Shown here: positions 26,871-46,612 of the stretch, piece by piece | Layout: every line of letters begins with the position of its first letter | How positions within the stretch are numbered: position 1 is the first letter of the stretch | Origin: a virus | Reading direction: 5' to 3' (one strand) | Virus record (IMG/VR): IMGVR_UViG_3300023235_000012 | Location: 64,001-128,000 of that record | Length of the DNA stretch: 64,000 bases | The notes under the pieces: generated by a model | Databases searched by the model: none | The model's input: only the letters and a program-made list of their open reading frames with translations | Told to the model about the DNA's origin: nothing | Position numbers and translations under genes: made by a program

Positions 26871-27116
26871 TCAATCAATCTCTTCATAATTTTTTAATGT
26901 GGCGTTAGTTAGATCCGGGTTTCGGAGGATAAAGACTACTTCTTTATCCTCATCATCCCACGCTATTCCTATAATTGGCTCATGGTAACGGTATTCGAAT
27001 GGCCCATCTTCTAATTCTCCAGTTCCATCATCCAAGAAACATAGCATGGTTTGAAGCTGTACATCGTAATCATCAGGTACATCAGTGAGTCTTTCTTTTA
27101 GAGATTTGACGTTCAT
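26871..27116 (-). CDS. Hypothetical protein
   Basis: ORF coupled to deaminase. Confidence 0.6.
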   Translation of the reverse strand: MNVKSLKERLTDVPDDYDVQLQTMLCFLDDGTGELEDGPFEYRYHEPIIGIAWDDEDKEVVFILRNPDLTNATLKNYEEID

Positions 27117-29947: not shown

Positions 29948-30913
29948 TTATTTTCCTATAGCGTTATTGAAGATCCATGAGTGAATGCGAGCACTGAAGT
30001 TGTATCCTCGTCGAACAGTTTCTTCACAAATTCTAGCTTGAATTTCTTCCTGTTGTTCTCCGGATGAACCTACCGGCATGATCCACACTGGCCATTCAAT
30101 ACCAACATCACGATACGTGTTAGTGGCTCTTTCTACTTCGTCCCATGATCTCTCTGAACCATCTACAACGTATTTCAATTGTCCATTGTCGGACGCATCA
30201 GCGTATGATCGTAACACGGCTGCTTTTATTGCCTTTTCCCAAGATTCACCTGATGCGTATAGCTTCGGTGAAACTGACCAAAACCATTCAACCGGTCCTT
30301 GCTCATCAGGAACCAATCCACCACATTCGCTTGCTGTTTTGAACGCATTAATCAACTCTTCTGCGTTTGGACGCAGTCGTTGTGTTCCATTTGTCTCTAC
30401 GGTCACAAATGATGGAACATTCGATCTCTTCACAAATTCACGAAAAATTTCACAGATAGCAGTTTGGTTCATCATCGGCTCTCCACCAGTGAACGCCATA
30501 TGAATCGATTGTTTAGAGCGTGGATGAATAAACTTCCCATCTGGGTTGGTTTCGTGTATCATTAATTTTTCAAGTTTATCCACCATTTCTCTGGGGGTTT
30601 CTTGGTGTACCAAGTGCTGGAATTTTTTCGCCCAGCTATAAGCCGAATCGCACCCAAATTTTAAGATTGGAACATCTTCCATACTTTTGATGTCAGTTAG
30701 ATCGAGATTTTCATACTCTGTTTCCCAGGTACTCGGATCTCCTGGATTTTTTTGCCCGAAGCCTTGGCAAGAAAAATTGCAACCCCAAAATCTAACCCAA
30801 ATAGTAGGAACTCCGGTATACTGTCCTTCTCCTTGGATGGTTTCACCGAAGATTTCAGAATAACGAAATTTCTTTTCTTTCATATTTTTTCCGCATTTAG
30901 AACAAATTTCCAT
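29948..30913 (-). CDS. queE: 7-carboxy-7-deazaguanine synthase (radical SAM)
   Basis: EIF..IQGEG..G.P, GCNFSC...CDS, TGGEP, VETNGT, SVSPKL, RIH. Confidence 0.88.
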   Translation of the reverse strand: MEICSKCGKNMKEKKFRYSEIFGETIQGEGQYTGVPTIWVRFWGCNFSCQGFGQKNPGDPSTWETEYENLDLTDIKSMEDVPILKFGCDSAYSWAKKFQHLVHQETPREMVDKLEKLMIHETNPDGKFIHPRSKQSIHMAFTGGEPMMNQTAICEIFREFVKRSNVPSFVTVETNGTQRLRPNAEELINAFKTASECGGLVPDEQGPVEWFWSVSPKLYASGESWEKAIKAAVLRSYADASDNGQLKYVVDGSERSWDEVERATNTYRDVGIEWPVWIMPVGSSGEQQEEIQARICEETVRRGYNFSARIHSWIFNNAIGK

Positions 30914-30950: not shown

Positions 30951-31364
30951 TTATTCTACCATATTTAACACTACCTGATAATTATCCCATGCTGCTTGAA
31001 GTGATGGATCCTTCTTCCGAAGATTAGCCTCTTTTTCAAGGCGATTAGTAATTTCCAGAAGTTCGTCGTTTTGAGCCTCTATTTCACTAACTCGTTCATT
31101 TTGAATCCTGCCAAATTTTTCGGCGGTCAGCGCCTTCGCTTTCATCCTGCGAGCGTATTTTCCATTTTTTTCTAGAGAATCATCCCAGAACCAACTTTCA
31201 TAATCTTCTTTAATCCAATTAAGAGATTTTGATACGTTTATCAATTCTCTGTAATAGACGACCTCTTGTTCCGAAAGATAATCTTTGTTACACATCTCGT
31301 CTATCAATTTTTATAGGTTATTGATTTCAACCCTAATTTTGTCAACACCGAATTCTTTTTCCAT
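30951..31364 (-). pseudogene. Hypothetical gene with premature TAA; C-terminal DPSLQAAWDNY helix
   Basis: ATG 31364 with GGAG SD, in frame with track ORF; TAA at 31311-31313. Confidence 0.55.
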
Positions 31365-31391
31365 CAATTGACTTCTCCAGAATCATTTAAT

Positions 31392-31733
31392 CTAGTCTTT
31401 CAGAACTGGTCCAAATGGCAGAGTCCGCAACAATTCGATCCGACGATTTGTGCACGTTCGAATAGCAGCCGAAGACCCCTTTCCTGCCAAACGATGGATT
31501 TCGAAGGCTCTTGCAAATTCTTCGTCTTGCATGCAATACTCTCTGATATCTTTCTTTGAAGGAATTACCTTCTTAGAATTGATTGGAGTCCTACTGTTCT
31601 TTGCTTTGGTGATATTTGCTTGTATTATAGATGATGCTGTTTTTCTTCGAGGAGCAGGTTGCTGATTAATAGCGTATTTCCCCGAGTTGCCAAGATAAGG
31701 AGCCTTTATCGAAGTCAATCCAAAACCTTGCAT
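31392..31733 (-). CDS. Basic hypothetical protein
   Basis: Likely start MQGFG just after upstream stop. Confidence 0.5.
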   Translation of the reverse strand: MQGFGLTSIKAPYLGNSGKYAINQQPAPRRKTASSIIQANITKAKNSRTPINSKKVIPSKKDIREYCMQDEEFARAFEIHRLAGKGSSAAIRTCTNRRIELLRTLPFGPVLKD

Positions 31734-31734
31734 A

Positions 31735-32049
31735 TTATGCGCTCCAATACCGTTCCGTGCTAGGATCACAAATACCACCGATCAGTTCAGCCCGAATCTG
31801 CACCGACTTATCATTCATCAAATTTTTGACCGTTACGAGCTTTTGAGATTCTTCGAACAAATGATCCATAATCTGCTTCTTCAAGCTAGTCATTGTTTCC
31901 GCTACGAACGAAGTACCGTCATGCATTAATGCACATAAAAGGCCGCCCTCGATTTTATCGACCATCCCAACTTCTTTACGACCACGATATCCTTTGTCTT
32001 CAAAAACATAACCAGTTTCATTTTTCCATTTTACCAGAATCTTCGTCAT
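31735..32049 (-). CDS. Hypothetical protein
   Basis: C-terminal CDPSTERYWS; own promoter at 32080-32107. Confidence 0.6.
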   Translation of the reverse strand: MTKILVKWKNETGYVFEDKGYRGRKEVGMVDKIEGGLLCALMHDGTSFVAETMTSLKKQIMDHLFEESQKLVTVKNLMNDKSVQIRAELIGGICDPSTERYWSA

Positions 32050-32103: not shown

Positions 32104-32622
32104 TCAAGTGATTAATGCTTTCACTAACTCTAGTTCTTTTCGTCCGCCTGATTCCCAGGCTATTTTCAACGTTGGATTCTCTTCACCCATAGCAGTTGAA
32201 TAGATGAGTTCATTGTATTCCCACCATTCTTCAGCTCCATTTACATATTCAATAGCAGGACCATCTTCACGATGCCGTTCTCCATCTAACCACCATTCTT
32301 TGGACCCATTTACATAATATTCAACAGCCGGACCCTGTTCACGATGACGTTTTCCATTCACATACCAATATTTATTTCCATATTTGGAATAAGCCGCAGG
32401 GCCATCTTCACGATGGAGTTGTCCATTCAGATACCATGCGTTGAATCCATCTGGTGAAATAACAGCCGGACCCTGTTCACGATGCCGTTCTCCATCTAAC
32501 CACCATTCTTCATATCCATCTGGGCAAATAACAGCCGGGGCTTGTTCTCGATGGAGTTGTCCATTCAGACGCCATTCTTTAGATCCATCTTCGCATTCAC
32601 TCATTCTTGATTCATCGATCAT
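32104..32622 (-). CDS. HRE(D/Q)GPA-repeat protein, paralog 5 (5 repeats)
   Basis: 22-aa Trp-rich repeats. Confidence 0.85.
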   Translation of the reverse strand: MIDESRMSECEDGSKEWRLNGQLHREQAPAVICPDGYEEWWLDGERHREQGPAVISPDGFNAWYLNGQLHREDGPAAYSKYGNKYWYVNGKRHREQGPAVEYYVNGSKEWWLDGERHREDGPAIEYVNGAEEWWEYNELIYSTAMGEENPTLKIAWESGGRKELELVKALIT

Positions 32623-33134
32623 GATATCAAAGCTTTCACCAAATTGAATTCTTCTCGATTATCTGATTCCCAAGCTTTTTTCAACGTGAGATTCTCTTCA
32701 CCCATTTCAGTTGAATAGATGAGTTTATTGTATTCCCACCATTCTTTGGATCCATCTGAGTGTTCAATTGCGGGTCCTTGTTCACGATGCCGTTCTCCAT
32801 TCAGATACCATTCTTCAGCTCCATCTGGCCATATAACAGCCGGACCTTGTTCACGATGGAGTTGTCCATCTAACCACCATGTTTTATATCCATCTGGCCA
32901 TATAACAGCCGGACCTTGTTCACGATGGAGTTTTCCATTCAGATACCATGCTTTATATCCATCTGAGTCTATAATTGCCGGACCATCTTCATTATGGCGT
33001 TCTCCATCTTTCCACCATTCTTTAGTTCCATCTGGTGATATAACAGCAGGGCCTTGTTCACGATGGAGTTTTCCATTCAGATGCCATTCTTTAGATCCAT
33101 CTTCAAGTTCACTCATTCTTGATTCATCGATCAT
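32619..33134 (-). CDS. HRE(D/Q)GPA-repeat protein, paralog 4 (5 repeats)
   Basis: Start MIDESR via ATGA overlap. Confidence 0.85.
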   Translation of the reverse strand: MIDESRMSELEDGSKEWHLNGKLHREQGPAVISPDGTKEWWKDGERHNEDGPAIIDSDGYKAWYLNGKLHREQGPAVIWPDGYKTWWLDGQLHREQGPAVIWPDGAEEWYLNGERHREQGPAIEHSDGSKEWWEYNKLIYSTEMGEENLTLKKAWESDNREEFNLVKALIS

Positions 33135-33973
33135 GATATCAAAGCTTTCACTATATTGAATTCTTCTCTTGAACCAGATTCCCAAGCTTTCTTCAAAATT
33201 GGATTCTCTTCACCCATTTCAGTTGAATAGATGAGTTCATTGTATTCCCACCATTCTTTGGATCCATCTGAGTGTTCAATTGCGGGTCCTTGTTCACGGT
33301 GGAGTTGTCCATTTAACCACCATTCATTGGATCCATTTGATCGTATAACAGCTGGGCCTTGTTCACGATGCCGTTCTCCATTCAGATACCATGCTTTATA
33401 TCCATCTGGTGATATAACAGCAGGGCCTTGTTCACGATGGAGTTTTCCATTTAAGAACCATTCTTTGGATCCATTTGATCGTAAAATTGCCGGACCTTGT
33501 TCACGATGGAGTTGTCCATCTAACCACCATGTTTTATATCCATCTGGCCATATAACAGCAGGGCCATCTTCACGATGCCGTTCTCCATCTAACCACCATG
33601 CTTTATATCCATCTGGCCATATAACAGCAGGGCCATCTTCACGATGCCGTTCTCCATCTAACCACCATGCTTCAGCTCCATCTGGTGATATAACAGCAGG
33701 GCCTTGTTCACGATGGAGTTTTCCATTTAAGAACCATTCTTTGGATCCATTTGATCGTAAAATTGCCGGACCTTGTTCACGATGCCGTTCTCCATCTAAC
33801 CACCATTCTTCATATCCATCTGGGCAAATAACAGCCGGGGCTTGTTCTCGATGGAGTTGTCCATTCAGACGCCATTCTTTAGATCCATCTGGGCAAATAA
33901 CAGCCGGGGCTTGTTCTCGATGGAGTTTTCCATTCAGACGCCATTCTTTAGATCCATCTTCAAGTTCACTCAT
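33131..33973 (-). CDS. HRE(D/Q)GPA-repeat protein, paralog 3 (10 repeats)
   Basis: 22-aa repeats; 1-nt deletion separates the MTNEPR leader. Confidence 0.85.
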   Translation of the reverse strand: MSELEDGSKEWRLNGKLHREQAPAVICPDGSKEWRLNGQLHREQAPAVICPDGYEEWWLDGERHREQGPAILRSNGSKEWFLNGKLHREQGPAVISPDGAEAWWLDGERHREDGPAVIWPDGYKAWWLDGERHREDGPAVIWPDGYKTWWLDGQLHREQGPAILRSNGSKEWFLNGKLHREQGPAVISPDGYKAWYLNGERHREQGPAVIRSNGSNEWWLNGQLHREQGPAIEHSDGSKEWWEYNELIYSTEMGEENPILKKAWESGSREEFNIVKALIS

Positions 33974-33986
33974 CTTGGTTCATTTG

Positions 33987-34571
33987 TCATGAGATCAAAG
34001 CTTTCACCATATTGAATTCTTCTCGATTACCTGATTCCCAAGCTTTTTTTAATATTGGATTCTCGTCACCTATATCAGTTGAATAGATGAGTTCATTGTG
34101 TTCCCACCATTCTTTAGTTCCATCTGAATCTATAACAGCCGGACCTTGTTCACGATGCCGTTCTCCATCTAACCACCATTCTTTGGATCCATTTGATCGT
34201 AAAATTGCCGGACCTTGTTCACGATGGAGTTTTCCATTTAAGAACCATTCTTTAGTTCCACCTGGTGATATAACAGCCGGACCTTGTTCACGATGGAGTT
34301 TTCCATTTAAGAACCATGCTTCAGTTCCATCGGGCCAAATAATAGCCGGACCATCTTCACGATGGAGTTTTCCATTTAAGAACCATTCTTTGGATCCATC
34401 GGGCCAAATAATAGCCGGACCATCTTCACGATGGAGTTCTCCATTCAGACACCATTTTTTGGTTCCATTTGGCCTTTCAACAGCTGGGCCTTGTTCACGA
34501 TGCCGTTCTCCATTCAGACACCATTCTTTAGATCCATCTTCAAGTTCACTCATTCTTGGTTCATTTGTCAT
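33987..34571 (-). CDS. HRE(D/Q)GPA-repeat protein, paralog 2 (6 repeats)
   Basis: 22-aa repeats. Confidence 0.85.
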   Translation of the reverse strand: MTNEPRMSELEDGSKEWCLNGERHREQGPAVERPNGTKKWCLNGELHREDGPAIIWPDGSKEWFLNGKLHREDGPAIIWPDGTEAWFLNGKLHREQGPAVISPGGTKEWFLNGKLHREQGPAILRSNGSKEWWLDGERHREQGPAVIDSDGTKEWWEHNELIYSTDIGDENPILKKAWESGNREEFNMVKALIS

Positions 34572-35014
34572 GAGATCAAAGCTTTCACCATATTGAATTC
34601 TTCTCGATCACCTGATTCCCAGGCATTCTTCAATATTGGATTCTCTTCGCCTATATCAGTTGAATAGATGAGTTCATTGTATTCATACCAATATTTATTT
34701 CCATATTTGGAATAAATCGCAGGACCATCTACTCTATGACGTTTTCCATTTAAGAACCATGCTTCATATCCATCGGGCCAAATAATAGCCGGACCTTGTT
34801 CACGATGCCGTTCTCCATTCAGATACCACTCTTTGGACCCAACTTGACCTTCATATGCAGGGTAATATACTCTATGACGTTTTCCATTCAGATACCATTC
34901 TTTAGTTCCATTTGACCGTATAATTGCCGGACCATCTTCACGATGGCGTTCTCCATTCAGACGCCATTTTTTGGTTCCATCTAGATATTCAGTCATTGTT
35001 GGTTCATCGGTCAT
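34568..35014 (-). CDS. HRE(D/Q)GPA-repeat protein, paralog 1 (4 repeats)
   Basis: 22-aa repeats; promoter TTGACT-17nt-TATGTT 6 nt upstream. Confidence 0.85.
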   Translation of the reverse strand: MTDEPTMTEYLDGTKKWRLNGERHREDGPAIIRSNGTKEWYLNGKRHRVYYPAYEGQVGSKEWYLNGERHREQGPAIIWPDGYEAWFLNGKRHRVDGPAIYSKYGNKYWYEYNELIYSTDIGEENPILKNAWESGDREEFNMVKALIS

Positions 35015-35056: not shown

Positions 35057-35524
35057 TTATGATTTTACCCAGAAATTTTCCCACGGAAAACATATCCATC
35101 GGTCTTCATCTTTTCGATTAATTTCTCTAGCATAGAAATCAGGATTTATTTTCTGTGCGGTATTGTACCAAAGACTAGCAACTCTATAATTCATCGACTC
35201 TCTAATCATAGTTCCTTTTTCTTTTTTGAACTGACTTTCGATTTTTTCAAATGTGGAACCAGAATCTATAATATCATCGAAGACTAGCACGTAGTCTTCT
35301 TTTGTCATGTCTAATAATGAATCTATTTTCAGTTTTTTGTGATCTCGCAAAGAACAATGAATGATGTCTACTGGACAATCAAACCATTGCGCAAGAAAAA
35401 CAGCTGGAATAAGACCACCGCGACTTATTCCAAAGATATGATTCGGATGGAATTTTTTGAAAGTCATCTGTCGAGCAATTTCAATCATATCACCTTCGAA
35501 TTGTTCTTGTGAATAATGAATCAT
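35057..35524 (-). CDS. Type I phosphoribosyltransferase (Gpt-like)
   Basis: GISRGGLIPA, VLVFDDIIDSGST, WICFPWE. Confidence 0.88.
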   Translation of the reverse strand: MIHYSQEQFEGDMIEIARQMTFKKFHPNHIFGISRGGLIPAVFLAQWFDCPVDIIHCSLRDHKKLKIDSLLDMTKEDYVLVFDDIIDSGSTFEKIESQFKKEKGTMIRESMNYRVASLWYNTAQKINPDFYAREINRKDEDRWICFPWENFWVKS

Positions 35525-35572
35525 GCGTTTTCCATCTCAAATAAAGGTCTCATTTCATCTATCATTCCTTTC

Positions 35573-36370
35573 TCACTCTGAAAAACTTTTACTTGATTGG
35601 ATTAGACTATAGAACTCGGCACGAATAGCATCAATCTCTTTGAATTTACCACCTAGATAGGTAGTACACATATCACTGCTATGCTCCCGTACACCTCTTG
35701 AAGTCATGCAATGATGCTCTGCTTTCACGATCACCGCGATATCTTCTGTTTGTGCGAATTCTTTCAATGCACTGGCGATCTGGGTAGTCATCTCTTCTTG
35801 GATTTGTGGACGATAAGCGATGTGATGAACTATCCTATTGAACTTTGATAAGCCGATCACACAATCACCGGGGACTACGCCGACCCAAGCCTTCCCGACG
35901 ATGTTTTGAAAGTGGTGGGCACAGGTGCTGTGGATTGAAATCGGCCCGGCGGTATAGAGACCATCATACCCCATGTTTGGAAAAGCTGTTATTTCCGGAG
36001 GAGGTGAGTAACGCCCTCCGAAAATTTCTAGCACCATCATCTTGGCTACACGATTTGCCGTGTCTATGGTGTTGTGATCATTAGCGGTGTCAATTATCAA
36101 TGATTCAAGCACGCCTTGCATTTTCTCAGCAACTTCATCGATCAGAGCATCAATTTCACCTTCATTGATAAATTCACTTATATTATCATTGCATCTAAAA
36201 GTAACTTTATCAGAACCATTCTTATTATTATCAATAATCCTTTCTTTGATCACATTTGATATTTTGAGATTTTCTATTATGTCAATGGCATAAGACATCT
36301 GATTTTTTATCTCTTTCAATTCATCTGCATCTGATTCGCTGATGAGTTTCTTTATGTTTTCAACAGTCAT
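35573..36370 (-). CDS. folE: GTP cyclohydrolase I
   Basis: TANRVAKM, STCAHHF, GLSKFNR, PQIQE, HHCMTSRGV. Confidence 0.93.
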   Translation of the reverse strand: MTVENIKKLISESDADELKEIKNQMSYAIDIIENLKISNVIKERIIDNNKNGSDKVTFRCNDNISEFINEGEIDALIDEVAEKMQGVLESLIIDTANDHNTIDTANRVAKMMVLEIFGGRYSPPPEITAFPNMGYDGLYTAGPISIHSTCAHHFQNIVGKAWVGVVPGDCVIGLSKFNRIVHHIAYRPQIQEEMTTQIASALKEFAQTEDIAVIVKAEHHCMTSRGVREHSSDMCTTYLGGKFKEIDAIRAEFYSLIQSSKSFSE

Positions 36371-36407
36371 TTTTTCTCCTTGTTTAATTTTTAATTATAA
36401 GACTTTT

Positions 36408-37244
36408 CTATTGATTGTTCAATTTGTTTCTTGCTTGATCAATTAAAATACCAAATTGCTCTGAGAACGGATCATTATCCTTAAAGAAACGAATCATCAT
36501 ATCTACCATATTCAATTCATCTCTATTGGATGCGTCTTCTGAATAAAGAAAGTCAATAAGATAATTGATCATATTTTTCTGTTGGATCTCTGAATCTGTT
36601 GGATGAATCACATAATCTTCTGTAAAGCCATTCAATCCAAATGACAAAAATCTCTTAGTGCACTGTTTACATTCACCGCAAGGTTTTCCATCTTTTGGAT
36701 GCCAGCAACTTATGCTCGAATCACGAATTTCTTTGGCTGTTAATCCATTAGTAAGAGCCCATTTCACACATTTTTCCTTTGTCCACTCTTCTTCGACAAA
36801 AGGAAATACTAATTTACAATCATCTAGGAATGGACTTAAAACATACGACAAGAGTTCACTTGTCATATTTCGAAACTTTTCATTTTTGTCGGTTCCTTTT
36901 GGATTGTCTTCATCCCACACCGTTCCCATCCAAACTTCATTGGCTAATTCTTGCGATGCTGCTAAAACACCAAAGACAAGATTCCGGCCAGGAATATAAA
37001 TTGCTCCGGCATACGGATCATCTTTCTTTGCAATTGGTTTGATTGTATCATTCAACCAATCCACCTTTCGAACAATGACGAATTCTGGTAAACTATCTAG
37101 CTCTTCTTTTTCAGCTGCCTGACCGTGTGCAAAGAACAGGCATTTCACTTCTGCTTCGGGGTATTTGATTTTAGCATAATGGTACATCAAGAAGGAATCA
37201 AGTCCTCCACTGTAAAGAATAACTATCTTCTTTGCTTTATTCAT
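36408..37244 (-). CDS. queC: QueC-like 7-cyano-7-deazaguanine synthase
   Basis: YSGGLDS, GQ...E, IPGRN, SC...PCGECKQC..R. Confidence 0.85.
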   Translation of the reverse strand: MNKAKKIVILYSGGLDSFLMYHYAKIKYPEAEVKCLFFAHGQAAEKEELDSLPEFVIVRKVDWLNDTIKPIAKKDDPYAGAIYIPGRNLVFGVLAASQELANEVWMGTVWDEDNPKGTDKNEKFRNMTSELLSYVLSPFLDDCKLVFPFVEEEWTKEKCVKWALTNGLTAKEIRDSSISCWHPKDGKPCGECKQCTKRFLSFGLNGFTEDYVIHPTDSEIQQKNMINYLIDFLYSEDASNRDELNMVDMMIRFFKDNDPFSEQFGILIDQARNKLNNQ

Positions 37245-37281
37245 TTTATTTCCTCTTTTCTTGGATTAAATCCTTTGTTTC

Positions 37282-37485
37282 TTAATGTTTCTTTATGAAA
37301 ATCTTCTGCACTATAATATTTCCATCCTTGTTTTTGAAAGAGCCACATTCAAATGGAGAAGGAGGAGAATTAAATCCACAAAAAGAAGCTGCATTGTTCC
37401 AAATAACAACTCCTCTTTTGGATTTTTGACAGGGCCCAAGGTTAGCAGTTTTTACAGCTAAATCTATGATTTGATTTGGAATCAT
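37282..37485 (-). pseudogene. Truncated deoxycytidylate-deaminase-like fragment
   Basis: PCQKSKRGVVI...GFNSPP...C; lacks HAE and PCxxC. Confidence 0.45.
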
Positions 37486-37934
37486 TATTTCTCTTGCTTT
37501 GAAATCACGTAGATCAGTTCCACATCAGTTTCATGTTCAATGATTTCTGCTTGGATAGGATCATCTTCAAAGAATTTTTTTATCTTCGGAATAGATTTGA
37601 TCATTTTTGCTTTCCATTTCCCACTGGAAGCTCTAGTGTTATCTTTACGCAATTCTGGATTGAAATATACAGGATTATTAATTTTCTTTTTTCTGAGCAT
37701 TTCGTTAGTTTCATTAGCCATTTGAAAACTTCGTCCAGTGATTATAACATCTTTCGGACCAGGAAAAATTCCTGCAGTGATCACTCCATCAATATCAAAC
37801 CCACTGATTTCTAATGGATTATCTGAATTTTGTGCTAACCTTTTCTGCCTGCGATTATTAATTTCTTTTTTCGATTGTGGAACGCTCTGTTCCTTAACTA
37901 GTCGTCGTAATCGTACAGTCATCCAAGCTCCCAT
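37485..37934 (-). CDS. HAD-superfamily phosphatase (capless)
   Basis: GFDIDGVI, IITGR, K, FFEDD. Confidence 0.82.
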   Translation of the reverse strand: MGAWMTVRLRRLVKEQSVPQSKKEINNRRQKRLAQNSDNPLEISGFDIDGVITAGIFPGPKDVIITGRSFQMANETNEMLRKKKINNPVYFNPELRKDNTRASSGKWKAKMIKSIPKIKKFFEDDPIQAEIIEHETDVELIYVISKQEK

Positions 37935-38338
37935 GAACCATTAAACATTTTCAAAAAAGGATCTTCATTAATTACTTCTTTTGCAATCTTTTCAATATCT
38001 ACTATGCTACCTATCCACCATTCCCCATGACCGGTTTGAGTTGTTTCTTGATGAAGATTCTGAAACCCTTTCTGCTTTAATTTCTCAGAGATCCGATCCT
38101 CTAATCTCTTCGTTATGGATTTTTCATAGAAAGGTGACAACTGTTCGAATTTTAATCCAGCTGGATTCCCTTGATTCAGCGCACGATTTCTTTGGTAGAA
38201 TATATCATCTTTTTTCGATTTGCACGCAATGCCAATTTTTGCCACGTTCAACCTAGCGTCAAAAAACTTATTTCCACGCTCGGTAGCAATATAGACACAT
38301 TTATGCTCATCACTAACCATTGCTATTGTTTCGGCCAT
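37919..38338 (-). CDS. GIY-YIG (T5orf172-like) nuclease-domain protein
   Basis: VYIA, KIGIA, R...LNQGNP, LE, GEW. Confidence 0.7.
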   Translation of the reverse strand: MAETIAMVSDEHKCVYIATERGNKFFDARLNVAKIGIACKSKKDDIFYQRNRALNQGNPAGLKFEQLSPFYEKSITKRLEDRISEKLKQKGFQNLHQETTQTGHGEWWIGSIVDIEKIAKEVINEDPFLKMFNGSWELG

Positions 38339-39639
38339 TATTCGTAATCATTCCTATCTGTCTGGAAGGTGTACTGTAGGTCTTTAGCTTTTGGAAAATT
38401 TTCAATCAGTTGTGGTTTGGTAAGATTCGTTATTTCTCGACGAGACAACGCGTCACATTCAAATTTGGCGTCTTCTGTTCTAAGCTGCAGTGGAGGCGTC
38501 TTTTGTGTCCATGCCGATGGTCCTCTTAGAAAACCAACGACTCCCATTTCTGCCGCTACTTTACAGAAGCGAATGGCACTGATGACGACCCCGCCACTGT
38601 TTGGTGAATCCTGGACCGAAAGCCTTGCAGACAGTTCGTATCTAGCCCCGCCAAATCCATAAGCTATGATATCGAAGTTAGCTATCTTGTTGTCGCTTCC
38701 AACATACTCACCACCTGGCTTCTGAACAACAGTCAACGATGGACCTGCGTAAAAAGTGTGACCGGCGATACTTTGATCTCGGACGACGTTCTGTCCGTTA
38801 AGAACATTCTCTTTGCTTATGTGTTTACCTTTAAGACGACTTGGTTCGGCCATATTTAGGAAGTCGGTGTTCGCTGTTCGACCGCTTCTGATCGTTTCTT
38901 GCCCCTGCGTAGAACCTGCCGCCATGTTCATTTGGATATGTTGAGTAACCATTAAGCCTGAATCAAGCATGGCGCCTTGAAGCACTTCGCTCATACGAGA
39001 TGCTCCCCAGGCGGACCTCATATCCGACCCAACGATCGTCAATTTTTTATCAATAAATCGTTGTTCTACTTCCTGAGTGTCTTTAGTGCTGATCAAGGTC
39101 GGGATGCAATTTACAAAGTGAACATTTGCTTCCAAGGCAATGTCGATATAAAATCGACTTGCTTTCTCAGATCCGACCGGTAGGTAATTAATCAAGACGT
39201 CTACTCTAGTTTTCTTAATGATATCAACGATGTCTTCGAAAGATTCTGCTCGTTTAGCTCCAGTTCGGAAACTAACTTCTTCCGGAAAATCTAGCATATA
39301 TGGAGCAACCCCGTCGAGCTCTGGTCCAGAATAAACCATTGCTCCAGCTTCTACACATCCTGGACTATTATGATTGATTTCTAGAATTTCTTCGACGTGA
39401 TTCATCGCACAATTTGGCCGTGACCGCAATGCTTCTACAAGTGGCCGATTAACTTTGCGTCGATCAACATCAAAACCAACGACGAACTCAATTTCATCTA
39501 CAGTGTATCCACCAATGTCATGATACATCAATCCGACTTTATCTTCTGGATTTGTTCGATAATATTGAACACCTTCAACAAGGGATTTTGCACAATTACC
39601 AACACCGATAATTCCTACGCGGATTTTCTCTTTTTTCAT
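38338..39639 (-). CDS. ino1: myo-Inositol-1-phosphate synthase
   Basis: GVGNCAKSLVEGV, INYLPVGS, NCIP, NTDFLNM, VQDSPNSGGV..AIR; start MKKEK with GAAGGAG SD. Confidence 0.9.
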   Translation of the reverse strand: MKKEKIRVGIIGVGNCAKSLVEGVQYYRTNPEDKVGLMYHDIGGYTVDEIEFVVGFDVDRRKVNRPLVEALRSRPNCAMNHVEEILEINHNSPGCVEAGAMVYSGPELDGVAPYMLDFPEEVSFRTGAKRAESFEDIVDIIKKTRVDVLINYLPVGSEKASRFYIDIALEANVHFVNCIPTLISTKDTQEVEQRFIDKKLTIVGSDMRSAWGASRMSEVLQGAMLDSGLMVTQHIQMNMAAGSTQGQETIRSGRTANTDFLNMAEPSRLKGKHISKENVLNGQNVVRDQSIAGHTFYAGPSLTVVQKPGGEYVGSDNKIANFDIIAYGFGGARYELSARLSVQDSPNSGGVVISAIRFCKVAAEMGVVGFLRGPSAWTQKTPPLQLRTEDAKFECDALSRREITNLTKPQLIENFPKAKDLQYTFQTDRNDYE

Positions 39640-39804
39640 TCTAAACTCCTTCAGTTTTGTTATTAACACTTGACTTTCTTTCGAAAACTTGAATTATTAG
39701 AAACAAGTCCATCAAATGGTTGGTGGTAAGGTTATCACCCTTTGTCCGGTAGTAATGAACCATATGGTCTGTTGTTTACCGTACCATTTATTTATGTGCT
39801 ATTG

Positions 39805-41427
39805 TCAAAAATCAAATAAATTATGTCTTGCTTTTGGTTTCTCTTTTGGTTTCTTAATTTTGATTTTTTCCGGTGGCATAAATTCTTTCAATCCTTCCAA
39901 AGATGGATTATCATAATTAACTGTATCAGTTACAAACCTCGGGGTGTTAAATTCTTTTAGCTGCTTCTTATATAATTCTATCTTATCCATTGGATTTTCA
40001 CTTTCGAAGATCTCTGGAATAATTTGGTTAAGCATCTGAAATAATTCCAACGGACATTCTCCACCCTCTTCATGCCATTCTAATCCGTGCTTGTACGTTC
40101 CGTCGCAGATTTTATTGGCTTCTTGAATTCCTCGGATCATTATTTCAGTGTTATGATTCATAAGAAACATATAGGTAATGGTATCCCAGGATGAGTTAGA
40201 ATCAATATCAAATCCCTTAACACAAAAATCACCTAAAGTTAGCTTTGTGCTAATCCCTGATAAATCTTTATCTTTTACTCCATGTTCTTCTTTGAGCCAA
40301 TCTCCTAAAAGAGTAGATGAACCAACGAACTTTTTATCATCGGGACCAGCAACTGCACTAGTGCTAAATCGTTTGGCTGTCATCTTAGTCTGTGCATAAA
40401 TCAACGCCTTAGAGGCAGAAAGGAACGGCGAGCTTGAGTCAAAACTTATCGTTACACTTGGGTCAATCTGCTGTCTAAGGATTCGTTGAATTTTTGTTAG
40501 AATCGGAGCATTGGAAACTCTTGATAAACCAAGTAAATGAATCCAAGCCTGATCTTTATTGATCTTCTGCTCGTCCCTCATCTTAATTAGCAACTGAAGT
40601 GAGGAACTATAATCCAAAGTGATGTTACCTGCTAGAGCCCAGCCTTCTAAAGGAAGATCCTTAACTCGATCATACCAATAATCTGCTTGCTCTGGATTCG
40701 CACCTTGAACAACATTCAGAAATTTTGTTGCTCCTGGTGTTCTATGCTTTAGAAAATAGTCGATATTTTCTAACGTAAACTCTAGACACGCATTGAATTT
40801 GTCAACTGTTGGATGCGTTTTCAAGACCATATTGTAGAAGGAATCAAAATCTGGATTTAAAACTATTCCATTTGCTGGAAAATCCAAAACCATGCTATAA
40901 TCAGCTGTGAGTTCAAGCCATTTCAAGACCGTAGCACGAACTTTATCAATGCCATTCAGATCAGTCCAATCTGTTTTCCATGTCCCAGTTGCCCACTGAA
41001 ATCCACCCGAGTCACCAATCAAGGTTACATCTGGATCTCGTTCATGAACAAAAAATTCTCGGTCTAATGTTTTTATTGGATCCAACGTGGCATGACCAGA
41101 AGAATAGAGGCCTGCGCCATAATAGAAACCGCCGCAATCTTTTTGATAATAATTCAGTTCATCGCCTTGTTCTCGAAAACCAGATGGAATCCTCTGTCCT
41201 GGTTGATAACCATTTGTTTTCAAACCAAATTCACTAATTCTGTTTCGTGAATTATAAGATACATAATTGGAACTTGTTGCTGGCAGATACACTGCATATT
41301 GACCCTGTGGATCATCGAATGGTAATTCTTGGTCTCGATGAGTAACCCAGTAATCACGAGTATCTTCAATTAAAGATTCGTTAAGGGGTCGTCGCTGTCT
41401 GTAATTCGATTTTGTGTCTGTAGGCAT
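39805..41427 (-). CDS. TGT-fold base-exchange transglycosylase (DpdA/TGT-like)
   Basis: GDSGGFQ, MVLDFP, LNVVQG, GWALAG, IHLLG, SFDSSSPF. Confidence 0.75.
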   Translation of the reverse strand: MPTDTKSNYRQRRPLNESLIEDTRDYWVTHRDQELPFDDPQGQYAVYLPATSSNYVSYNSRNRISEFGLKTNGYQPGQRIPSGFREQGDELNYYQKDCGGFYYGAGLYSSGHATLDPIKTLDREFFVHERDPDVTLIGDSGGFQWATGTWKTDWTDLNGIDKVRATVLKWLELTADYSMVLDFPANGIVLNPDFDSFYNMVLKTHPTVDKFNACLEFTLENIDYFLKHRTPGATKFLNVVQGANPEQADYWYDRVKDLPLEGWALAGNITLDYSSSLQLLIKMRDEQKINKDQAWIHLLGLSRVSNAPILTKIQRILRQQIDPSVTISFDSSSPFLSASKALIYAQTKMTAKRFSTSAVAGPDDKKFVGSSTLLGDWLKEEHGVKDKDLSGISTKLTLGDFCVKGFDIDSNSSWDTITYMFLMNHNTEIMIRGIQEANKICDGTYKHGLEWHEEGGECPLELFQMLNQIIPEIFESENPMDKIELYKKQLKEFNTPRFVTDTVNYDNPSLEGLKEFMPPEKIKIKKPKEKPKARHNLFDF

Positions 41428-41512: not shown

Positions 41513-42247
41513 TTAGGTATGACCAGGGAACAAGAATTCATAATTAGCGATGCCAGTGTCGATGTCGATCTTCAAAATGCCATCGTTAGACAAAGCTATA
41601 TTAGTTTTTCCCGAGTCAGCTAGCTTTAAGACAGTCAATACTTGATCAATTGGCCAAGCAAAACCACCGTCATAACCTTTACCCACGTCCTTTGAGAAAA
41701 GAACAGAAGCTGAATGGCTTGCACTGTTTTCTTCACCGATTGCAAAAATCAAATGATTATCAATAACTTTTGGCGTAAACTTCGTTTCTTGTGCTGAATA
41801 CAAACCGGCCATTTCACTAAACTCGTTGATCTTCTGACGGGGTGGCTCATCTATCTCAATAACATAGGTCGTCCCAGCGAATTTTGGTTGAGCTGGAATA
41901 GCTGTCTCTGACATCAATCGATAAGTCGCGTGCATTCCCGCGTCGTTGTCAAACACAATAGAGATTGGAACTTCTTTATTGTCTCTTTTTTCGCGCTTCA
42001 TTGTTACAGTTCCATCATCGCCTTTGAATGATTTCGATCCAGCGAGACCAGACAACAGACCAAGATTTGAAAGACCAAAAATTCCTTTAAAATCTTCAAC
42101 CGGATCACTGGTTGTGGCGTTCATGATAACTGTTCGGTCATCACTGGTCGACTGGTATTTCGTTTCTTTATCTGTGCCTTCGACACGCACCACACTAAAC
42201 TCGATTCCTGAAGTGCTGCGCACAATGTCTTGTAAATTCTTTTTCAT
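41513..42247 (-). CDS. DNA polymerase sliding clamp (gp45-like)
   Basis: Size, FGLSNL, YRLMS, ID.G...YEFLFP; near the polymerase. Confidence 0.7.
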   Translation of the reverse strand: MKKNLQDIVRSTSGIEFSVVRVEGTDKETKYQSTSDDRTVIMNATTSDPVEDFKGIFGLSNLGLLSGLAGSKSFKGDDGTVTMKREKRDNKEVPISIVFDNDAGMHATYRLMSETAIPAQPKFAGTTYVIEIDEPPRQKINEFSEMAGLYSAQETKFTPKVIDNHLIFAIGEENSASHSASVLFSKDVGKGYDGGFAWPIDQVLTVLKLADSGKTNIALSNDGILKIDIDTGIANYEFLFPGHT

Positions 42248-42304: not shown

Positions 42305-42619
42305 TTAGTTTGACTGTTCGAATGTCTTCATATATTTTGAAAGCTGGAGATTTTTATTTTTCATTCCTTGTTCGATGTGATCTTCTGAAATCAATCCTGC
42401 GTTTTTTGCGTGCCTGATCATTTCTAATAGATCACCTATTTCCAAAGAAAGTCGTTGGACGTTGTTCAGATCTTGCTCGGGTTGGCTTTCTTCCGGACCA
42501 AAACGCAAGGTCTTCGTTGCTATCTGTTGAACTTCCGCAGCTTCCTCTAGTAGTATGATGAGTATCTCAGTTTGATTTTCATTAGTCGGGTCGTGAACAA
42601 ATTTAAATTTATCTACCAT
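42305..42619 (-). CDS. MazG-like nucleotide pyrophosphohydrolase
   Basis: EEAAE...EIGDL. Confidence 0.75.
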   Translation of the reverse strand: MVDKFKFVHDPTNENQTEILIILLEEAAEVQQIATKTLRFGPEESQPEQDLNNVQRLSLEIGDLLEMIRHAKNAGLISEDHIEQGMKNKNLQLSKYMKTFEQSN

Positions 42620-42628: not shown

Positions 42629-45439
42629 CTAAAACGAAAACATTGAATTGACTACTTCTGAATGGGCGGCTTCGCCTATATGAAGGTCCCAGTCTAAAAT
42701 CTCAAAAATATTATTCAGTTTCTGCTCAACCATTCCTGTTTCCATTGCATCATCGTCGAATGGAAGTTTTTTGAACCATGAAGGAAGATTTAGTTCATCT
42801 GCTGGAAAGGCGACGCTGGTCATATTCATTGGATTTTGTGGTTTCAATTTACAGACCACAATCCGTCCACCATCCGTAACTCTAAGAGATTGCCTGTCGC
42901 CATATGCAGCACATAATTTATTCCAATTAATACTAGCAGTGATATGGCCTGGAACTCGGACATTCTTCGATCCTTTCTTTTCTACTTCTTCTGTATATTC
43001 GGTGATTTTGTTGGCTGATTTAGGTGAACCTTTCTCCCAAGAATTAAGAGATTTGAAGATTACTCGGAAGTTTCGGATTTTTTCTTTAAGTCCATCTTCG
43101 TTTCCTCCATCTAACACATACATCGCACAATCTTGTAGAAATTCCTGAATCACTTTAGAACTATCGGCTCGTTTAATGTCCATTCCCATAACCTTTAGCT
43201 TACCAGACTTACCGTCTCGATCTCGTCTAATCCCCTTATCATCGTAAATCAGAATGGCATATCTTTTCTTTGCGACAAATAGCCCTCTAGTTCCAATTAG
43301 TTCTCTACCGGCCTGAATTATTCCACCACGTTCAACACCCGAATGAAATAAATCATGCATTTTTTCTGGAAAGGTTTCATTAGTCATAGCTGCAATCTGA
43401 TCATAGAGTTCAGTTACATCATCTTTTTCCCAAGTGAATTCGATGTTTTCTTTTTGGAAATAATTCCACACGCTGAAATACGCAGAGTCGGTATCACCAT
43501 AAATTATCGCGTCTCCAGTATAATCATATTCACCTGTGATTATCTCGTTGATTTTTGATGTCATATGTCGCGTGATACAACGGCCAGTCAATGTCACTGA
43601 TTGTCCCATTCTTCTGTCATGGAATTTTGATGATGCATTCAACAAACATCCATATAAACTATTAAGCTGAATTTTACGAACCTGTTGGCGCATATTCCAG
43701 AAGATGAAGTTCTCTTTTGCTTGTTTAATATCAACAGGAAACCATGTTCCTGCTCTGTTCTGACGAGTTTCTTCTGGAATTTCTTTCAGCATAGAATCAT
43801 ATAAGTGATTATCTTCTGAAATTCCACTCTCGGTCAATGTTTCCCATATTGAAGCAGTCTTCTGCATAATCTTTCGTTCAGTATACCATCTTTTCAAAAG
43901 ACTAGGAATGAGACCATCAATATCAGTTCTAAATAAAGTTCCGTTGGCGCTGATATTTAAATTCGAATCTTCTTGGAAAATAATTTCATATAATTCTGCG
44001 CCTGTCAGTTGTTGAATTGTGTCATCATTAAAATCAACGGTGATTTCATTGTCTGTTTTATCAATGACATAATTGTATTCTAGGGTTCCAAAATGACCGG
44101 CCCAAGCTGCTGCCCAATCTGGAACCCTAACACCTTTGACAGATTTTATCAAGTTTTCTTTTTCAATTCGTTCTTCAAGTGCAGTCATCGTATCATCTGG
44201 TCGAATCTGACCAACGATCGTTTCCGGGCTCATATTTAATAACCGGATACATGATGGATAAAGTGAATTGATGTCAACTGCACCTACCCAATCCTGGAGT
44301 CCTTGCTTTGGATCGGCGACCCATGCACCTGCGGCTTTAGCATCGAATTCTTCTTCTTTTTCTTTAGTGGGAACCACCATTCCACGATTATGAGCTTCAT
44401 TGATGATTGATTGATCAACCCACGCAACCGTTCCCATTGTAGATGACATCAAAACATAATTCGCCGTGGCGATCTGATTGGCTAAATCTAGATAGCGTAG
44501 CTTCTTGTCAAGTTTATCCAGGAGAACCGTGTCTTGTCTGTTGTACTCAATGAAAAGTTTAAAATCTTTTCTATATAGATTATATAATGTTCCTTCGTAT
44601 TGAACTTTTCGTTCACCTATTTCAACCTCACCCACATAATCCAATTTATACGTTGGCATCTGTTTTGGAGTATGCTTCTTGTACAGATCCAGATAATCAA
44701 TGTGAAGTCGACCTTTGATTGTAAAGCTAAGGTTTTCTCGTCCAAAGTTATCTTTACTGATTCCTCTGATCGGTTGAAAACCCCATAGACACCAACCAGA
44801 TGTCGCTTGTTTATTCAAAACTTTAATGGTTCTATTGACCATATATGGAACATCGTATGTTTCACTGTTCCAACCTGAGATGACATCCGCATCTTCGATC
44901 AGATCTTGAAACATCATCAAGAGTTCTTTCTCAGAACAAAGAACAGTGTTCGGGAAATCATCTACTATTTTTTGTGCTTCATCGTCTGTCAGTGTTTCGG
45001 GGCGGACGACCAGCGTAAATAATTCATCGAGCCAGTTGCAATAAACCGAGACGGCTGTCACCGGATTGAAAGGATCTTCAGGGGTGGAATAACCTTTGAT
45101 GGGATCGAAATCCACTTCGATATCAAAAAATGCTACGTGTAGGTTTGCTGGATTTGGAGTGGGGAAATTCTGTTTGAGCGTCTTGAATAAAACGTTATGA
45201 TCTGCTTCGAATGTTTTACGGCCTTGCATCGATCGAAGGTCTCGTTTAAAATCTCGATACCTTCGACTAGTTACTTCTCGGACTCTCGCACCGGTGGTGG
45301 CCTTATGAGAGCCATTTTCATCTTCATAGTAAAATTGATAGATAGGAGGGAGTTCTCTAACTATTCTTCTTCCATTAATTCTTTCAGTTACCAGGACGAC
45401 GTCGGTATTCCTGTCCCAGTGTGCATCGATATATGTCAT
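42629..45439 (-). CDS. Family B DNA polymerase (gp43-like)
   Basis: FDIEV, DINSLYPS, KIQLNSLYG, YGDTDS, KKRY. Confidence 0.96.
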   Translation of the reverse strand: MTYIDAHWDRNTDVVLVTERINGRRIVRELPPIYQFYYEDENGSHKATTGARVREVTSRRYRDFKRDLRSMQGRKTFEADHNVLFKTLKQNFPTPNPANLHVAFFDIEVDFDPIKGYSTPEDPFNPVTAVSVYCNWLDELFTLVVRPETLTDDEAQKIVDDFPNTVLCSEKELLMMFQDLIEDADVISGWNSETYDVPYMVNRTIKVLNKQATSGWCLWGFQPIRGISKDNFGRENLSFTIKGRLHIDYLDLYKKHTPKQMPTYKLDYVGEVEIGERKVQYEGTLYNLYRKDFKLFIEYNRQDTVLLDKLDKKLRYLDLANQIATANYVLMSSTMGTVAWVDQSIINEAHNRGMVVPTKEKEEEFDAKAAGAWVADPKQGLQDWVGAVDINSLYPSCIRLLNMSPETIVGQIRPDDTMTALEERIEKENLIKSVKGVRVPDWAAAWAGHFGTLEYNYVIDKTDNEITVDFNDDTIQQLTGAELYEIIFQEDSNLNISANGTLFRTDIDGLIPSLLKRWYTERKIMQKTASIWETLTESGISEDNHLYDSMLKEIPEETRQNRAGTWFPVDIKQAKENFIFWNMRQQVRKIQLNSLYGCLLNASSKFHDRRMGQSVTLTGRCITRHMTSKINEIITGEYDYTGDAIIYGDTDSAYFSVWNYFQKENIEFTWEKDDVTELYDQIAAMTNETFPEKMHDLFHSGVERGGIIQAGRELIGTRGLFVAKKRYAILIYDDKGIRRDRDGKSGKLKVMGMDIKRADSSKVIQEFLQDCAMYVLDGGNEDGLKEKIRNFRVIFKSLNSWEKGSPKSANKITEYTEEVEKKGSKNVRVPGHITASINWNKLCAAYGDRQSLRVTDGGRIVVCKLKPQNPMNMTSVAFPADELNLPSWFKKLPFDDDAMETGMVEQKLNNIFEILDWDLHIGEAAHSEVVNSMFSF

Positions 45440-46171: not shown

Positions 46172-46612
46172 TCATTTAAAAAGATAAACAGTTACTGGTT
46201 GAGAACAAGTTTCTTCGATAATAGTTTCAATTTTCTTCCAATCTCCGCCTCCGAGCCCGGCACCAATCTGAGGCATAGCTATTTCGTAATTCAAAGCCTT
46301 TGCCATATCATCGACTTCTTTTAATGCAACTTTAATAGCTTCGTAATCAACAAAGCGTTTTCCAGTGCTACCAAAATCTTTCTGTGTGATCGCATTAACA
46401 ATGATTTTGTTTTCTTTGGTAAGATAGAATATGGTTTCACCAAGTTCCAGGCCTTTTTCTTCAAATTGTTTTCGATAAGCTTCATAAGCACCGGGCCATC
46501 TTTCTCTAATAGCTTTTGCTACTCCTGAGCCCATAACTCCTTTTGCATTACATCCATGAACGATGATTTTTTCTTTCGCATCGAGTACATTTCCGTCTTG
46601 ATAAGTTATCAT
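46172..46612 (-). CDS. Macrodomain ADP-ribose binding/hydrolase
   Basis: IVHGCNAKGVMGSGVA, AMPQIGAGLGGGDW. Confidence 0.9.
   Translation of the reverse strand: MITYQDGNVLDAKEKIIVHGCNAKGVMGSGVAKAIRERWPGAYEAYRKQFEEKGLELGETIFYLTKENKIIVNAITQKDFGSTGKRFVDYEAIKVALKEVDDMAKALNYEIAMPQIGAGLGGGDWKKIETIIEETCSQPVTVYLFK

Follow-up and report, generated by a model that had tools for sequence, protein, structure and literature searches.

Why would a phage carry genes for inositol synthesis in the middle of a pathway for 7-deazaguanine? The question is raised by a 64,000-nucleotide stretch of viral DNA (hereafter the window), which comprises bases 64001-128000 of the 137,267-base record IMGVR_UViG_3300023235_000012, itself estimated to be ~37% complete. 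Between positions 35,057 and 41,427 a first-pass annotation had read a one-strand series of a TGT/DpdA-like gene, an inositol-1-phosphate synthase, a HAD phosphatase, queC, folE and a phosphoribosyltransferase gene, with queE beyond a repeat array, and had tied the inositol genes to the deazaguanine pathway while allowing them a separate role. The series holds: the DpdA-like, myo-inositol-1-phosphate synthase (MIPS), HAD, QueC-like, FolE and phosphoribosyltransferase genes, and QueE past the repeats, all lie on the minus strand, together with nearly every other gene in the window, and from the DpdA-like to the phosphoribosyltransferase gene the gaps are at most 135 bases and several genes overlap. 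On balance, we judge it probable that in the region a jumbo phage with PA5oct and Vibrio phage 2.275.O among its relatives keeps its island for 7-deazaguanine modification of DNA, to which a MIPS-HAD-QueC-like unit has been added, and in which MIPS and HAD would make myo-inositol for hypermodification of DNA bases, here probably joined to 7-carboxy-7-deazaguanine (CDG) by the QueC-like enzyme and inserted by the DpdA-like one.

The myo-inositol-1-phosphate (inositol-3-phosphate) synthase gene (38338..39669, minus strand) has its likely start at an ATG at position 39639, and the database copy of the protein is 433 residues long. Its first assignment proved sound: the protein matches Pfam PF01658 with 36.2 bits, over the 27-bit cut-off, and phrog_33138 at E 7e-114, and its residues 15-404 align with Ino1 of M. 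tuberculosis (PDB 1gr0) at E 3e-51. The score against the NCBIfam equivalog TIGR03450 (E 2e-59, 201 bits) is far under the 638-bit cut-off of that model. The SYLPVGS, N-x-DF, SK-ISK, D-x-K, DSPNS and K(S/T)PP blocks of 1gr0 are retained, among which we presume the catalytic residues to lie, and the lysine of the DDIKS block is an arginine in the window protein. The second-best solved relative is Ari2 (6k96, E 5e-27). Since the protein is 72-76% identical to MIPS in genome records of Spirochaetota, Bdellovibrionales and other bacteria, and aligns with Ino1 over its full length, we read it as an ordinary MIPS and class it, on these alignments, as a bona fide member of the family. A public protein collection holds 5,700 matches to it at E <= 1e-10, cellular MIPS included. 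Cellular genes of the same subfamily lie in a capsule/polysaccharide cluster of Sediminibacterium (locus L186, 4752-17198; compared loci carry L numbers) and, in Acidobacteriota, beside a DUF5690 gene, an FAD oxidoreductase and a HAD_2 hydrolase (L182, 6586-11308).

Such cellular relatives bring in a different explanation, which we consider rather unlikely: that MIPS and HAD form an auxiliary metabolic module with no part in DNA chemistry, serving sugar-phosphate pools, lipids, solutes or anti-defence, which travels with modification islands through a shared plastic early/replication region, and that the QueC is an ordinary preQ0/ADG synthase. It draws support from the 72-76% identical cellular MIPS in lipid and polysaccharide contexts, namely the capsule cluster of L186 and a 3.1-Mb Spirochaetota chromosome (L173) in which a CDP-alcohol phosphatidyltransferase lies a few kilobases from the MIPS, and from the MIPS of phage Ps15, which is held to be bacterial-like and probably horizontally acquired (PMC9025141). 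The evidence on the other side comes from what accompanies MIPS in phages.

Its first companion is a small capless HAD-type phosphatase of 149 residues (37485..37934, minus strand). HAD enzymes carry a DxDx[T/V] motif, a conserved S/T, a conserved K and an acidic DD/ED pair; in the window protein and its relatives the four corresponding motifs, FDIDGV, ITGRS, SGxxK and FEDDP, do not vary across an alignment of 23 homologues, and neither do residues D47, D49, G50, V51, T66, G67, R68, K108, D124 and D125, which bears out the phosphatase call. The protein has no Pfam match, HAD models included. Its AlphaFold (AF2) model has a pLDDT of 85.7, and a Foldseek search with it gives weak matches (E 0.014-0.1) to the phosphatase of T4 PNK (1rpz, 5uj0), Nir2 LNS2, lipin Pah2 and KdsC, with pantothenate synthetases intermixed.

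The second companion is a QueC-like PP-loop ATPase (36408..37244, minus strand) of what proves to be a MIPS-linked subfamily. The annotation as queC stands at the level of the Pfam family (PF06508, E 2e-15), though the protein scores below the canonical QueC equivalog cut-offs (49 bits against TIGR00364, cut-off 150; 35 bits against NF008317, cut-off 378), and its match to PDB 3bl5 is at E 1e-4. QueC enzymes share the motifs SGGxDS, C(x)8CxxCxxC, YxQxHxxE, VPxRN and YPDC; in the E. coli enzyme Y35, R99 and Y131 are reported to be essential, and the YxQxHxxE tyrosine and YPDC to be needed for preQ0 (PMC13082051). Read from HMMER alignments to 3bl5 and 2pg3, the window protein keeps the ATP loop (SGGLDS, residues 12-17), the zinc motif (C180-x8-C189-xx-C192-xx-C195) and VPxRN in the form IPGRN, while YxQxHxxE has become HGQAAEKE and YPDC has become GTDK; it has neither a canonical equivalog score nor the full set of substrate-pocket motifs. 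Within the QueC family, Cap9 (type IV CBASS) and QatC work as ligases that, with ATP, link the carboxylate of CDG to amines of proteins (PMC13082051), and this precedent, together with the lost YxQxHxxE tyrosine and YPDC, is our ground for reading the window protein as a candidate CDG ligase.

These three genes constitute a conserved unit. Four viral loci came out of a search with the window QueC, each with MIPS, HAD and QueC contiguous. In phage Moby, a T4-like Stenotrophomonas Menderavirus, the order is FolE - MIPS - HAD - QueC - TGT - QueE, with QueC, at 51% identity to that of the window, the best conserved of the que genes; in loci L169 and L171 a jumbo-phage arrangement of family B DNA polymerase (PolB), unknown gene, DpdA-like gene, MIPS, HAD and QueC is followed by FolE, phosphoribosyltransferase, QueD and QueE. 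The triad is present, then, in unrelated genome backgrounds. A profile search extended the set to 22 viral loci, in 13 of which MIPS lies directly upstream of QueC (about 9-10 distinct, near-duplicates being L169/L170, L201/L202 and L204/L205) and in nine of which there is no MIPS within 8 kb. Of the 13, 11 have HAD between MIPS and QueC. In a maximum-likelihood QueC tree (20 distinct rows) a single branch, with support 99/96, splits MIPS-linked from MIPS-less proteins; none of 500 label shuffles matched this split, and all 13 viral loci of the MIPS-linked clade, plus the window, have MIPS directly upstream. Conversely, MIPS, HAD and this QueC are found in none of 80 jumbo-phage loci (the best 80 of at least 597 viral contigs with a DpdA-like gene) that share the synteny of PolB, the conserved phrog_12062 protein and the DpdA-like gene, and in the six of these annotated by Pfam the stretch downstream of the DpdA-like gene has no QueC domain. 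A check set beforehand, whether ino1, HAD and queC occur together across phages, thus comes out as 13 of 13 clade loci linked against 0 of 80 syntenic relatives. Among the linked loci, L206 has a GT1 glycosyltransferase after QueC (8789-10186), L203 an FkbM-like ORF between MIPS and HAD (6957-7619), and L201 a TnpB/IS605 element inserted just upstream of MIPS (4872-6143).

The history of MIPS differs from that of QueC. In a MIPS tree of 61 rows, which took near-full-length sequences only, one in four of the 73 MIPS from loci of the 5-hmdU-kinase type and all others, que-linked MIPS fall at three or more separate positions, with three label changes that are all forced by well-supported branches. 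One position is a deep clade of que-linked MIPS only (L169, L171 and L203-L207), beside which L199 forms a long, weakly placed branch; at a second, L168 stands with L201/L202 among MIPS of thymidine-hypermodification clusters; at the third, the window MIPS belongs to another well-supported group, with MIPS of thymidine-cluster phages and Spirochaetota genes. With the linked QueCs on one side of a single branch and their MIPS at three or more places, the MIPS beside QueC must have been exchanged for one of the kind seen in thymidine clusters on at least two occasions, with the arrangement staying as it was. Such replacement in place is what one would expect if MIPS activity beside QueC were under selection, and the trees point to this. 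An auxiliary module unrelated to DNA chemistry accounts poorly for adjacency kept through replacement, for a triad kept down to 43% QueC identity, or for the fact that, within the jumbo-phage family, presence or absence of the module exactly tracks this QueC.

MIPS and HAD also occur together without QueC. A tblastn search of cultured phages with MIPS returned 19 records (16 Stenotrophomonas, two Caulobacter Cr30 and one Ralstonia RP13), and in the one record inspected from each of these three groups a HAD homologue lies just downstream. Among 80 viral loci with MIPS 72-80% identical to that of the window (the best 80 of 177 viral contigs with a close MIPS homologue), HAD follows MIPS in 78, and 72 have a core hypermodification gene (5-hmdU-kinase-like, ADDT, Tet/JBP or P-loop-kinase-3) beside the pair, a count that rises to 78 with a wider gene set; seven of the eight loci without a core gene end on, or at most ~500 bases after, MIPS or HAD, L062 being the exception. 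None of the 80 has que genes. Most often the order runs TS-like - dCMP deaminase - (DUF6552) - MIPS - HAD - 5-hmdU-DNA-kinase-like - phrog_13881 - C5-methylase-like, and the second is Tet/JBP - FkbM methyltransferase - ADDT - MIPS - HAD - P-loop kinase 3. In Cr30 an ADDT and a TAGT-like glycosyltransferase lie directly upstream of MIPS-HAD, in RP13 two 5-hmdU kinases lie within a few kilobases, and neither phage has QueC or FolE; heavily hypermodified thymidine is reported from the phage group of RP13 (PMC12686479). The complete genome of Moby, by comparison, contains no ADDT and no 5-hmdU kinase, so that its que cluster is the sole recognised DNA-modification system beside MIPS-HAD, and the 137-kb record, at ~37% completeness, likewise yielded no 5-hmdU DNA kinase, ADDT or TS-like hydroxymethylase by tblastn and family search. 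A scan with one 5-hmdU-kinase-like protein gave six near-identical loci only. The L008-L087 contigs (e.g. L029, 8420-14993; L085, 6698-12283) are abundant T4-like viruses with MIPS-HAD in thymidine-hypermodification clusters, which may mark an undescribed pyrimidine modification.

The pair therefore accompanies three chemically different base-modification systems. This changes the first proposal, that the inositol genes belong to the deazaguanine pathway, in one respect: their co-occurrence with a QueC clade supports it, while the pair itself cannot be called deazaguanine-specific, most of its carriers being without que genes. The alternative offered with that proposal, a separate role for the inositol genes, is weakened by the 72 of 80 loci in which MIPS-HAD sits inside other DNA-hypermodification clusters. 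Association with three chemistries, mostly without que genes, is also what an auxiliary module would show, and here it is the flanking of MIPS-HAD by DNA-modification genes on both sides, in several different architectures, that speaks against that explanation. We consider it likely that MIPS-HAD serves DNA modification at all, and the recurrence of inositol genes in such phage clusters suggests an undescribed inositol-bearing DNA base. A broader statement is offered tentatively, as quite possible: phages make myo-inositol to attach to DNA bases, and MIPS-HAD is a portable cyclitol-donor module for at least three hypermodification routes. This would entail an inositol-7-deazaguanine, by way of a QueC-like ligase, here and in the Stenotrophomonas Menderaviruses, and inositol-bearing pyrimidines in abundant marine T4-like phages, Cr30 and RP13.

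Insertion into DNA would fall to the 540-residue DpdA-like protein (39805..41427, minus strand). It has no Pfam match, and the NCBIfam DpdA model NF041059 matches at E 9e-5 and 21 bits, below its 200-bit cut-off. Its family comprises 763 homologues of about 500 residues, none with a Pfam domain, and a profile of 32 of them found no PDB sequence at E <= 1. In the 32-member alignment GDSGG[YF]Q is invariant, which by its pattern may be the TGT catalytic Asp motif (DSGG[FY]Q type). An AF2 model built on this alignment (pLDDT 76, pTM 0.82) retrieves with Foldseek the TGT structures 7a4x, 2ash and 7nq4 at E ~1e-8 and probability 1.0; 188 PDB chains reach E <= 0.001, every one of the first 50 being TGT or QTRT1, and the target-normalised TM-score is ~0.5. 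On this model the protein has a TGT TIM-barrel fold, and the TGT/DpdA-like call is upheld by fold, with a weak match to the DpdA sequence model. We define here what is a hitherto unnamed TGT-fold family of jumbo phages with 763 members.

By tblastn (E <= 1e-3) the relatives of the protein are only Vibrio phage 2.275.O, PA5oct-like phages and Phosso; its homologue adjoins QueF, QueC, amidohydrolase and FolE genes in 2.275.O and QueE in PA5oct. A close-relative scan with the single protein found none, and the 80 jumbo-phage loci came from the 32-sequence alignment. In these the order PolB - phrog_12062 - DpdA-like is kept in 69-78 loci, and downstream of the DpdA-like gene come FolE (47 loci), QueE (39) and phosphoribosyltransferase (36). 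A preprint describes the DNA of PA5oct as resistant to several restriction enzymes, with a pattern interpreted as modified G (PMC12191111). From this resistance and the shared DpdA-like/que synteny we take the window to contain a deazaguanine island of the type usual in the PA5oct/2.275.O group. In loci without MIPS, the site after the DpdA-like gene is taken up by sugar-type cassettes of other kinds: in L088 by a GFO/IDH/MocA oxidoreductase, an ADH and an epimerase (6935-8774, 13409-14386), and in L100 by a GT1 glycosyltransferase, a GMP-reductase-like gene, DUF6552, a phosphoribosyltransferase and a Vut_1 transporter (14046-15212, 17338-19889). The site looks like a variable decoration locus of jumbo phages.

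A transglycosylase known by its TGT fold only, with tRNA enzymes as its best structural matches, could also mean that the cluster modifies tRNA with a queuosine-like base, the inositol-derived group ending up on tRNA; the que genes of Ps15 have been discussed in terms of tRNA queuosine (PMC9025141). We regard this as very improbable. The DNA of the relative PA5oct is restriction-resistant in the manner described above, a 2023 survey has DpdA inserting such bases in DNA in all phages with these modifications (PMC10516641), and elsewhere MIPS-HAD keeps company with DNA-specific genes (5-hmdU DNA kinase, ADDT, Tet/JBP).

The rest of the pathway lies downstream of QueC. GTP cyclohydrolase I (FolE; 35573..36370, minus strand) is identified by PF01227 (E 2e-44) and NF006824 (E 7e-52), and is followed by a purine-type phosphoribosyltransferase (35057..35524, minus strand; PF00156, E 5e-12) to which the XPRT/HGPRT models of NCBIfam match under their cut-offs; the two genes stand side by side in 36 of the 80 related jumbo-phage loci, making the phosphoribosyltransferase a conserved cluster member. 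Past the repeats, a QueE-like radical SAM enzyme (29948..30913, minus strand), the CDG synthase of the set, matches phrog_2076 at E 1e-52 and the QueE models of NCBIfam under cut-off. These matches agree with the folE, phosphoribosyltransferase and queE assignments of the first reading, as does the absence of queD from the window. QueD was found nowhere in the 137-kb record, which is ~37% complete, either by family search or by tblastn with the QueDs of L169 and L171. MIPS as a stand-in for the missing QueD was considered and rejected, as L169 and L171 have both, and in the Menderaviruses QueD lies elsewhere in the genome (PMC9025141).

With a phosphoribosyltransferase so regularly present, a pathway at the level of the nucleotide, hence pre-replicative, or of the nucleoside can be envisaged: the phosphoribosyltransferase would make a 7-deazaguanine nucleotide, HAD would dephosphorylate it, on the model of toyocamycin-type pathways, and MIPS would take a different sugar phosphate in place of glucose-6-phosphate, yielding another cyclitol or carbocycle. 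Ari2, a synthase of a five-membered cyclitol phosphate and the second-best solved relative of the window MIPS, fits this scheme, as do the HAD nucleotidases of other kinds beside QueC in MIPS-less loci (NT5C in L213, HAD_PNKP in L210) and the nucleoside 2-deoxyribosyltransferase-like gene at 26367-26855. We find it improbable all the same: Ino1 is a far better match to MIPS than Ari2, the identity to cellular MIPS favours the ordinary substrate, in 78 of 80 loci without phosphoribosyltransferase and que genes MIPS is followed by a HAD of this subfamily, and a TGT-fold transglycosylase fits post-replicative exchange of bases.

For inositol attached to guanine-derived bases the steps would be as follows. 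MIPS would convert glucose-6-phosphate to inositol-3-phosphate, from which HAD would strip the phosphate to leave myo-inositol, unless it acts after coupling. FolE, QueD (encoded by the host or elsewhere in the genome) and QueE would make CDG, and the QueC-like enzyme would adenylate the CDG carboxylate and hand it to a hydroxyl of inositol, in place of ammonia or in addition to it. The DpdA-like enzyme would then exchange guanine in the phage DNA for the product, or for a precursor finished on the DNA, and the phosphoribosyltransferase would recycle the released guanine. The framework is established: FolE, QueD and QueE make CDG, QueC turns it into preQ0 via an adenylate, and DpdA swaps guanine in DNA for the deazaguanine (PMC10516641). 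The specific proposal of a QueC-mediated inositol-CDG conjugate, drawn from gene content and motifs, we hold to be doubtful.

Several observations weigh against an inositol-bearing base in this phage. We know of no precedent for an ester of CDG with a polyol, and each step from inositol supply to inositol on DNA we infer from gene linkage. The MIPS-less relatives L208-L216 are also without the YxQxHxxE tyrosine and YPDC, so these changes are not specific to the MIPS-linked clade; two alignment columns only (H40 and Q194) separate MIPS-linked from MIPS-less QueCs, too few for clade-specific residues to serve as a sign of a changed nucleophile, an idea we therefore dropped. With que genes missing from all 80 MIPS-HAD loci, QueC cannot be the general coupling enzyme, and its link with MIPS, having a single origin on the QueC tree, is one maintained evolutionary event and not many. 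Two MIPS-QueC loci lack HAD, namely L199, which has a SAM methyltransferase in its place (7401-7997), and L206. The Foldseek match of HAD (best E 0.014) is silent on substrate class, and the fragment is missing QueD. All MIPS-HAD clusters lie in the replication/nucleotide-metabolism region, where accessory genes gather, and anti-defence genes are near the module in RP13 (Tad6, Acb1), Cr30 (Acb3) and L169/L171 (Acb1), as an auxiliary role would have it.

The remaining genes of the region are neighbours of the cluster or interrupt it. Two small ORFs lie within it. The one between MIPS and HAD (37919..38338, minus strand, 139 residues) had been called GIY-YIG, for which we found little: there is no PHROG or NCBIfam match and no Pfam match even at E 5, and a language-model lead to the T5orf172/MUG113 cluster (score 0.95) leaves it as possibly T5orf172/GIY-YIG-like; no other compared locus has a counterpart. 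The other (37282..37485, minus strand, 67 residues), previously taken for a deaminase fragment, has no Pfam, PHROG or NCBIfam match and no similarity to two dCMP deaminases, and that identification finds no support. Upstream, PolB (42629..45439, minus strand; PF00136, PF03104) is 43-46% identical to the polymerases of PA5oct and 2.275.O and anchors the conserved synteny, and is followed by a MazG-like NTP pyrophosphohydrolase (42305..42619, minus strand; phrog_4856, E 2e-17) and the phrog_12062 protein (41513..42247, minus strand; E 2e-54). The latter lies between PolB and the DpdA-like gene in 78 of the 80 jumbo-phage relatives and might be a partner of the transglycosylase; its homologue in PA5oct carries a structural-protein annotation. 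Downstream, five consecutive ORFs of 69-bp (23-residue) tandem repeats (32104..35014, minus strand; Tandem Repeats Finder, period 69, at most 10 copies per array, weak DUF6745 matches) separate the phosphoribosyltransferase from QueE, at a place where relatives have QueD (as in L169) and other small genes; three small ORFs at 30951-32049 are without Pfam, PHROG or NCBIfam match. A promoter/terminator scan gave 10 terminator-like sites against 8.7 expected, which is chance level.

Elsewhere in the window, likely anti-defence genes are an Apyc1-like metallo-beta-lactamase directly downstream of QueE (29171-29947, E 3e-30), an Acb1-like gene (14696-15193, E 4e-32) and a Macro-domain protein (46172-46612). 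There is a set for NAD salvage/synthesis at 3026-7287 (isochorismatase-like, cytidylyltransferase-like, NAPRTase and NAD synthase) and, at 7630-12415, a PrkA - DUF444 - SpoVR trio (Pfam E 1e-164 to 1e-175) that is unusual for a phage. The 2-deoxyribosyltransferase-like gene is accompanied by a dCMP deaminase (26367-27700), with one small ORF between them, and could touch on the handling of deazapurine nucleosides or nucleotides.

Set against known systems, the region belongs with the phage systems that modify DNA with 7-deazaguanines, a known kind, to which it adds a module that we did not find described in the literature searched. The known phage systems combine FolE, QueD, QueE and QueC with DpdA1-4 and yield dPreQ0, dADG, dG+, dPreQ1, mdPreQ1, fdPreQ1, dDG and dCDG (PMC10516641). 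The window resembles them in having FolE, QueE-like and QueC-like genes with a TGT-fold transglycosylase near a DNA polymerase, and a MazG-like gene nearby as in phage phiST (PMC10516641). It differs in embedding MIPS and HAD, tied to a distinct QueC clade, in having a purine phosphoribosyltransferase as a regular member, and in a transglycosylase that, with no Pfam match and so few tblastn relatives, we could not place among DpdA1-4. As in Gat-QueC, Cap9 and QatC, a QueC fold would activate the CDG carboxylate while a dedicated partner brings the nucleophile (PMC13082051; 10.1101/2025.04.06.647259); unlike in Cap9 and QatC, the proposed partner is a supplier of a small molecule (MIPS plus HAD), the nucleophile would be a hydroxyl and not ammonia or a protein amine, and the context is a phage DNA-modification cluster and not bacterial defence.

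Thymidine hypermodification, by 5-hmdU DNA kinase and amino acid:DNA transferase, is related through the MIPS-HAD homologues in its clusters (the 72 of 80 loci), and RP13, which is of this type, itself carries the pair. Sugar- or polyol-bearing thymidines are reported from SP-15-like/RP13-like phages and Pbunaviruses (PMC12686479, PMC12191111). Unlike those phages, the record that holds the window has none of the thymidine genes in its 137 kb and its chemistry would be guanine-based. The arabinose pathway of RB69/DLP3, with an isomerase, a HAD-type phosphatase, a kinase, a nucleotidyltransferase and glycosyltransferases (PMC13326640), offers a likeness in supply, namely a sugar-phosphate enzyme and then a small HAD phosphatase beside base-modifying genes. 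It is unlike the window in what follows, since no kinase, nucleotidyltransferase or glycosyltransferase comes after MIPS-HAD there; among the window ORFs scanned, which were a part of the total, we found no glycosyltransferase at all, in line with the first-pass annotation. Inositol, having no anomeric carbon, could not take the usual route of activation and transfer as a nucleotide sugar. A literature search, whose scope excluded subscription journals and supplementary tables, returned nothing linking inositol synthesis to phage DNA modification, and the word inositol is absent from the main texts of the 2023 phage deazaguanine survey (PMC10516641) and the 2026 QueC-family survey (PMC13082051). 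The paper on Ps15 mentions the que cluster and MIPS alike and handles them separately (PMC9025141).

The module is common, with a close MIPS homologue in 177 viral contigs, and its presence in cultured phages of Stenotrophomonas (Moby, IME-SM1, Ps15) and Caulobacter (Cr30) makes the idea directly testable. Clusters that are otherwise syntenic, with the triad present in some and absent in others, provide a clean contrast for comparative mass spectrometry, and as inositol and hexoses are equal in mass, some adducts taken by that method for hexose could be inositol. Bulky adducts on G or T may disturb sequencing, restriction and enzymatic work on such phages. The natural DNA hypermodifications known so far carry amino acids, polyamines, sugars and small one-carbon groups; if the reading given here is true, DNA would gain in a cyclitol a substituent of a new class, and a bond to a polyol made by a QueC-family enzyme would be new chemistry for the QueC fold.

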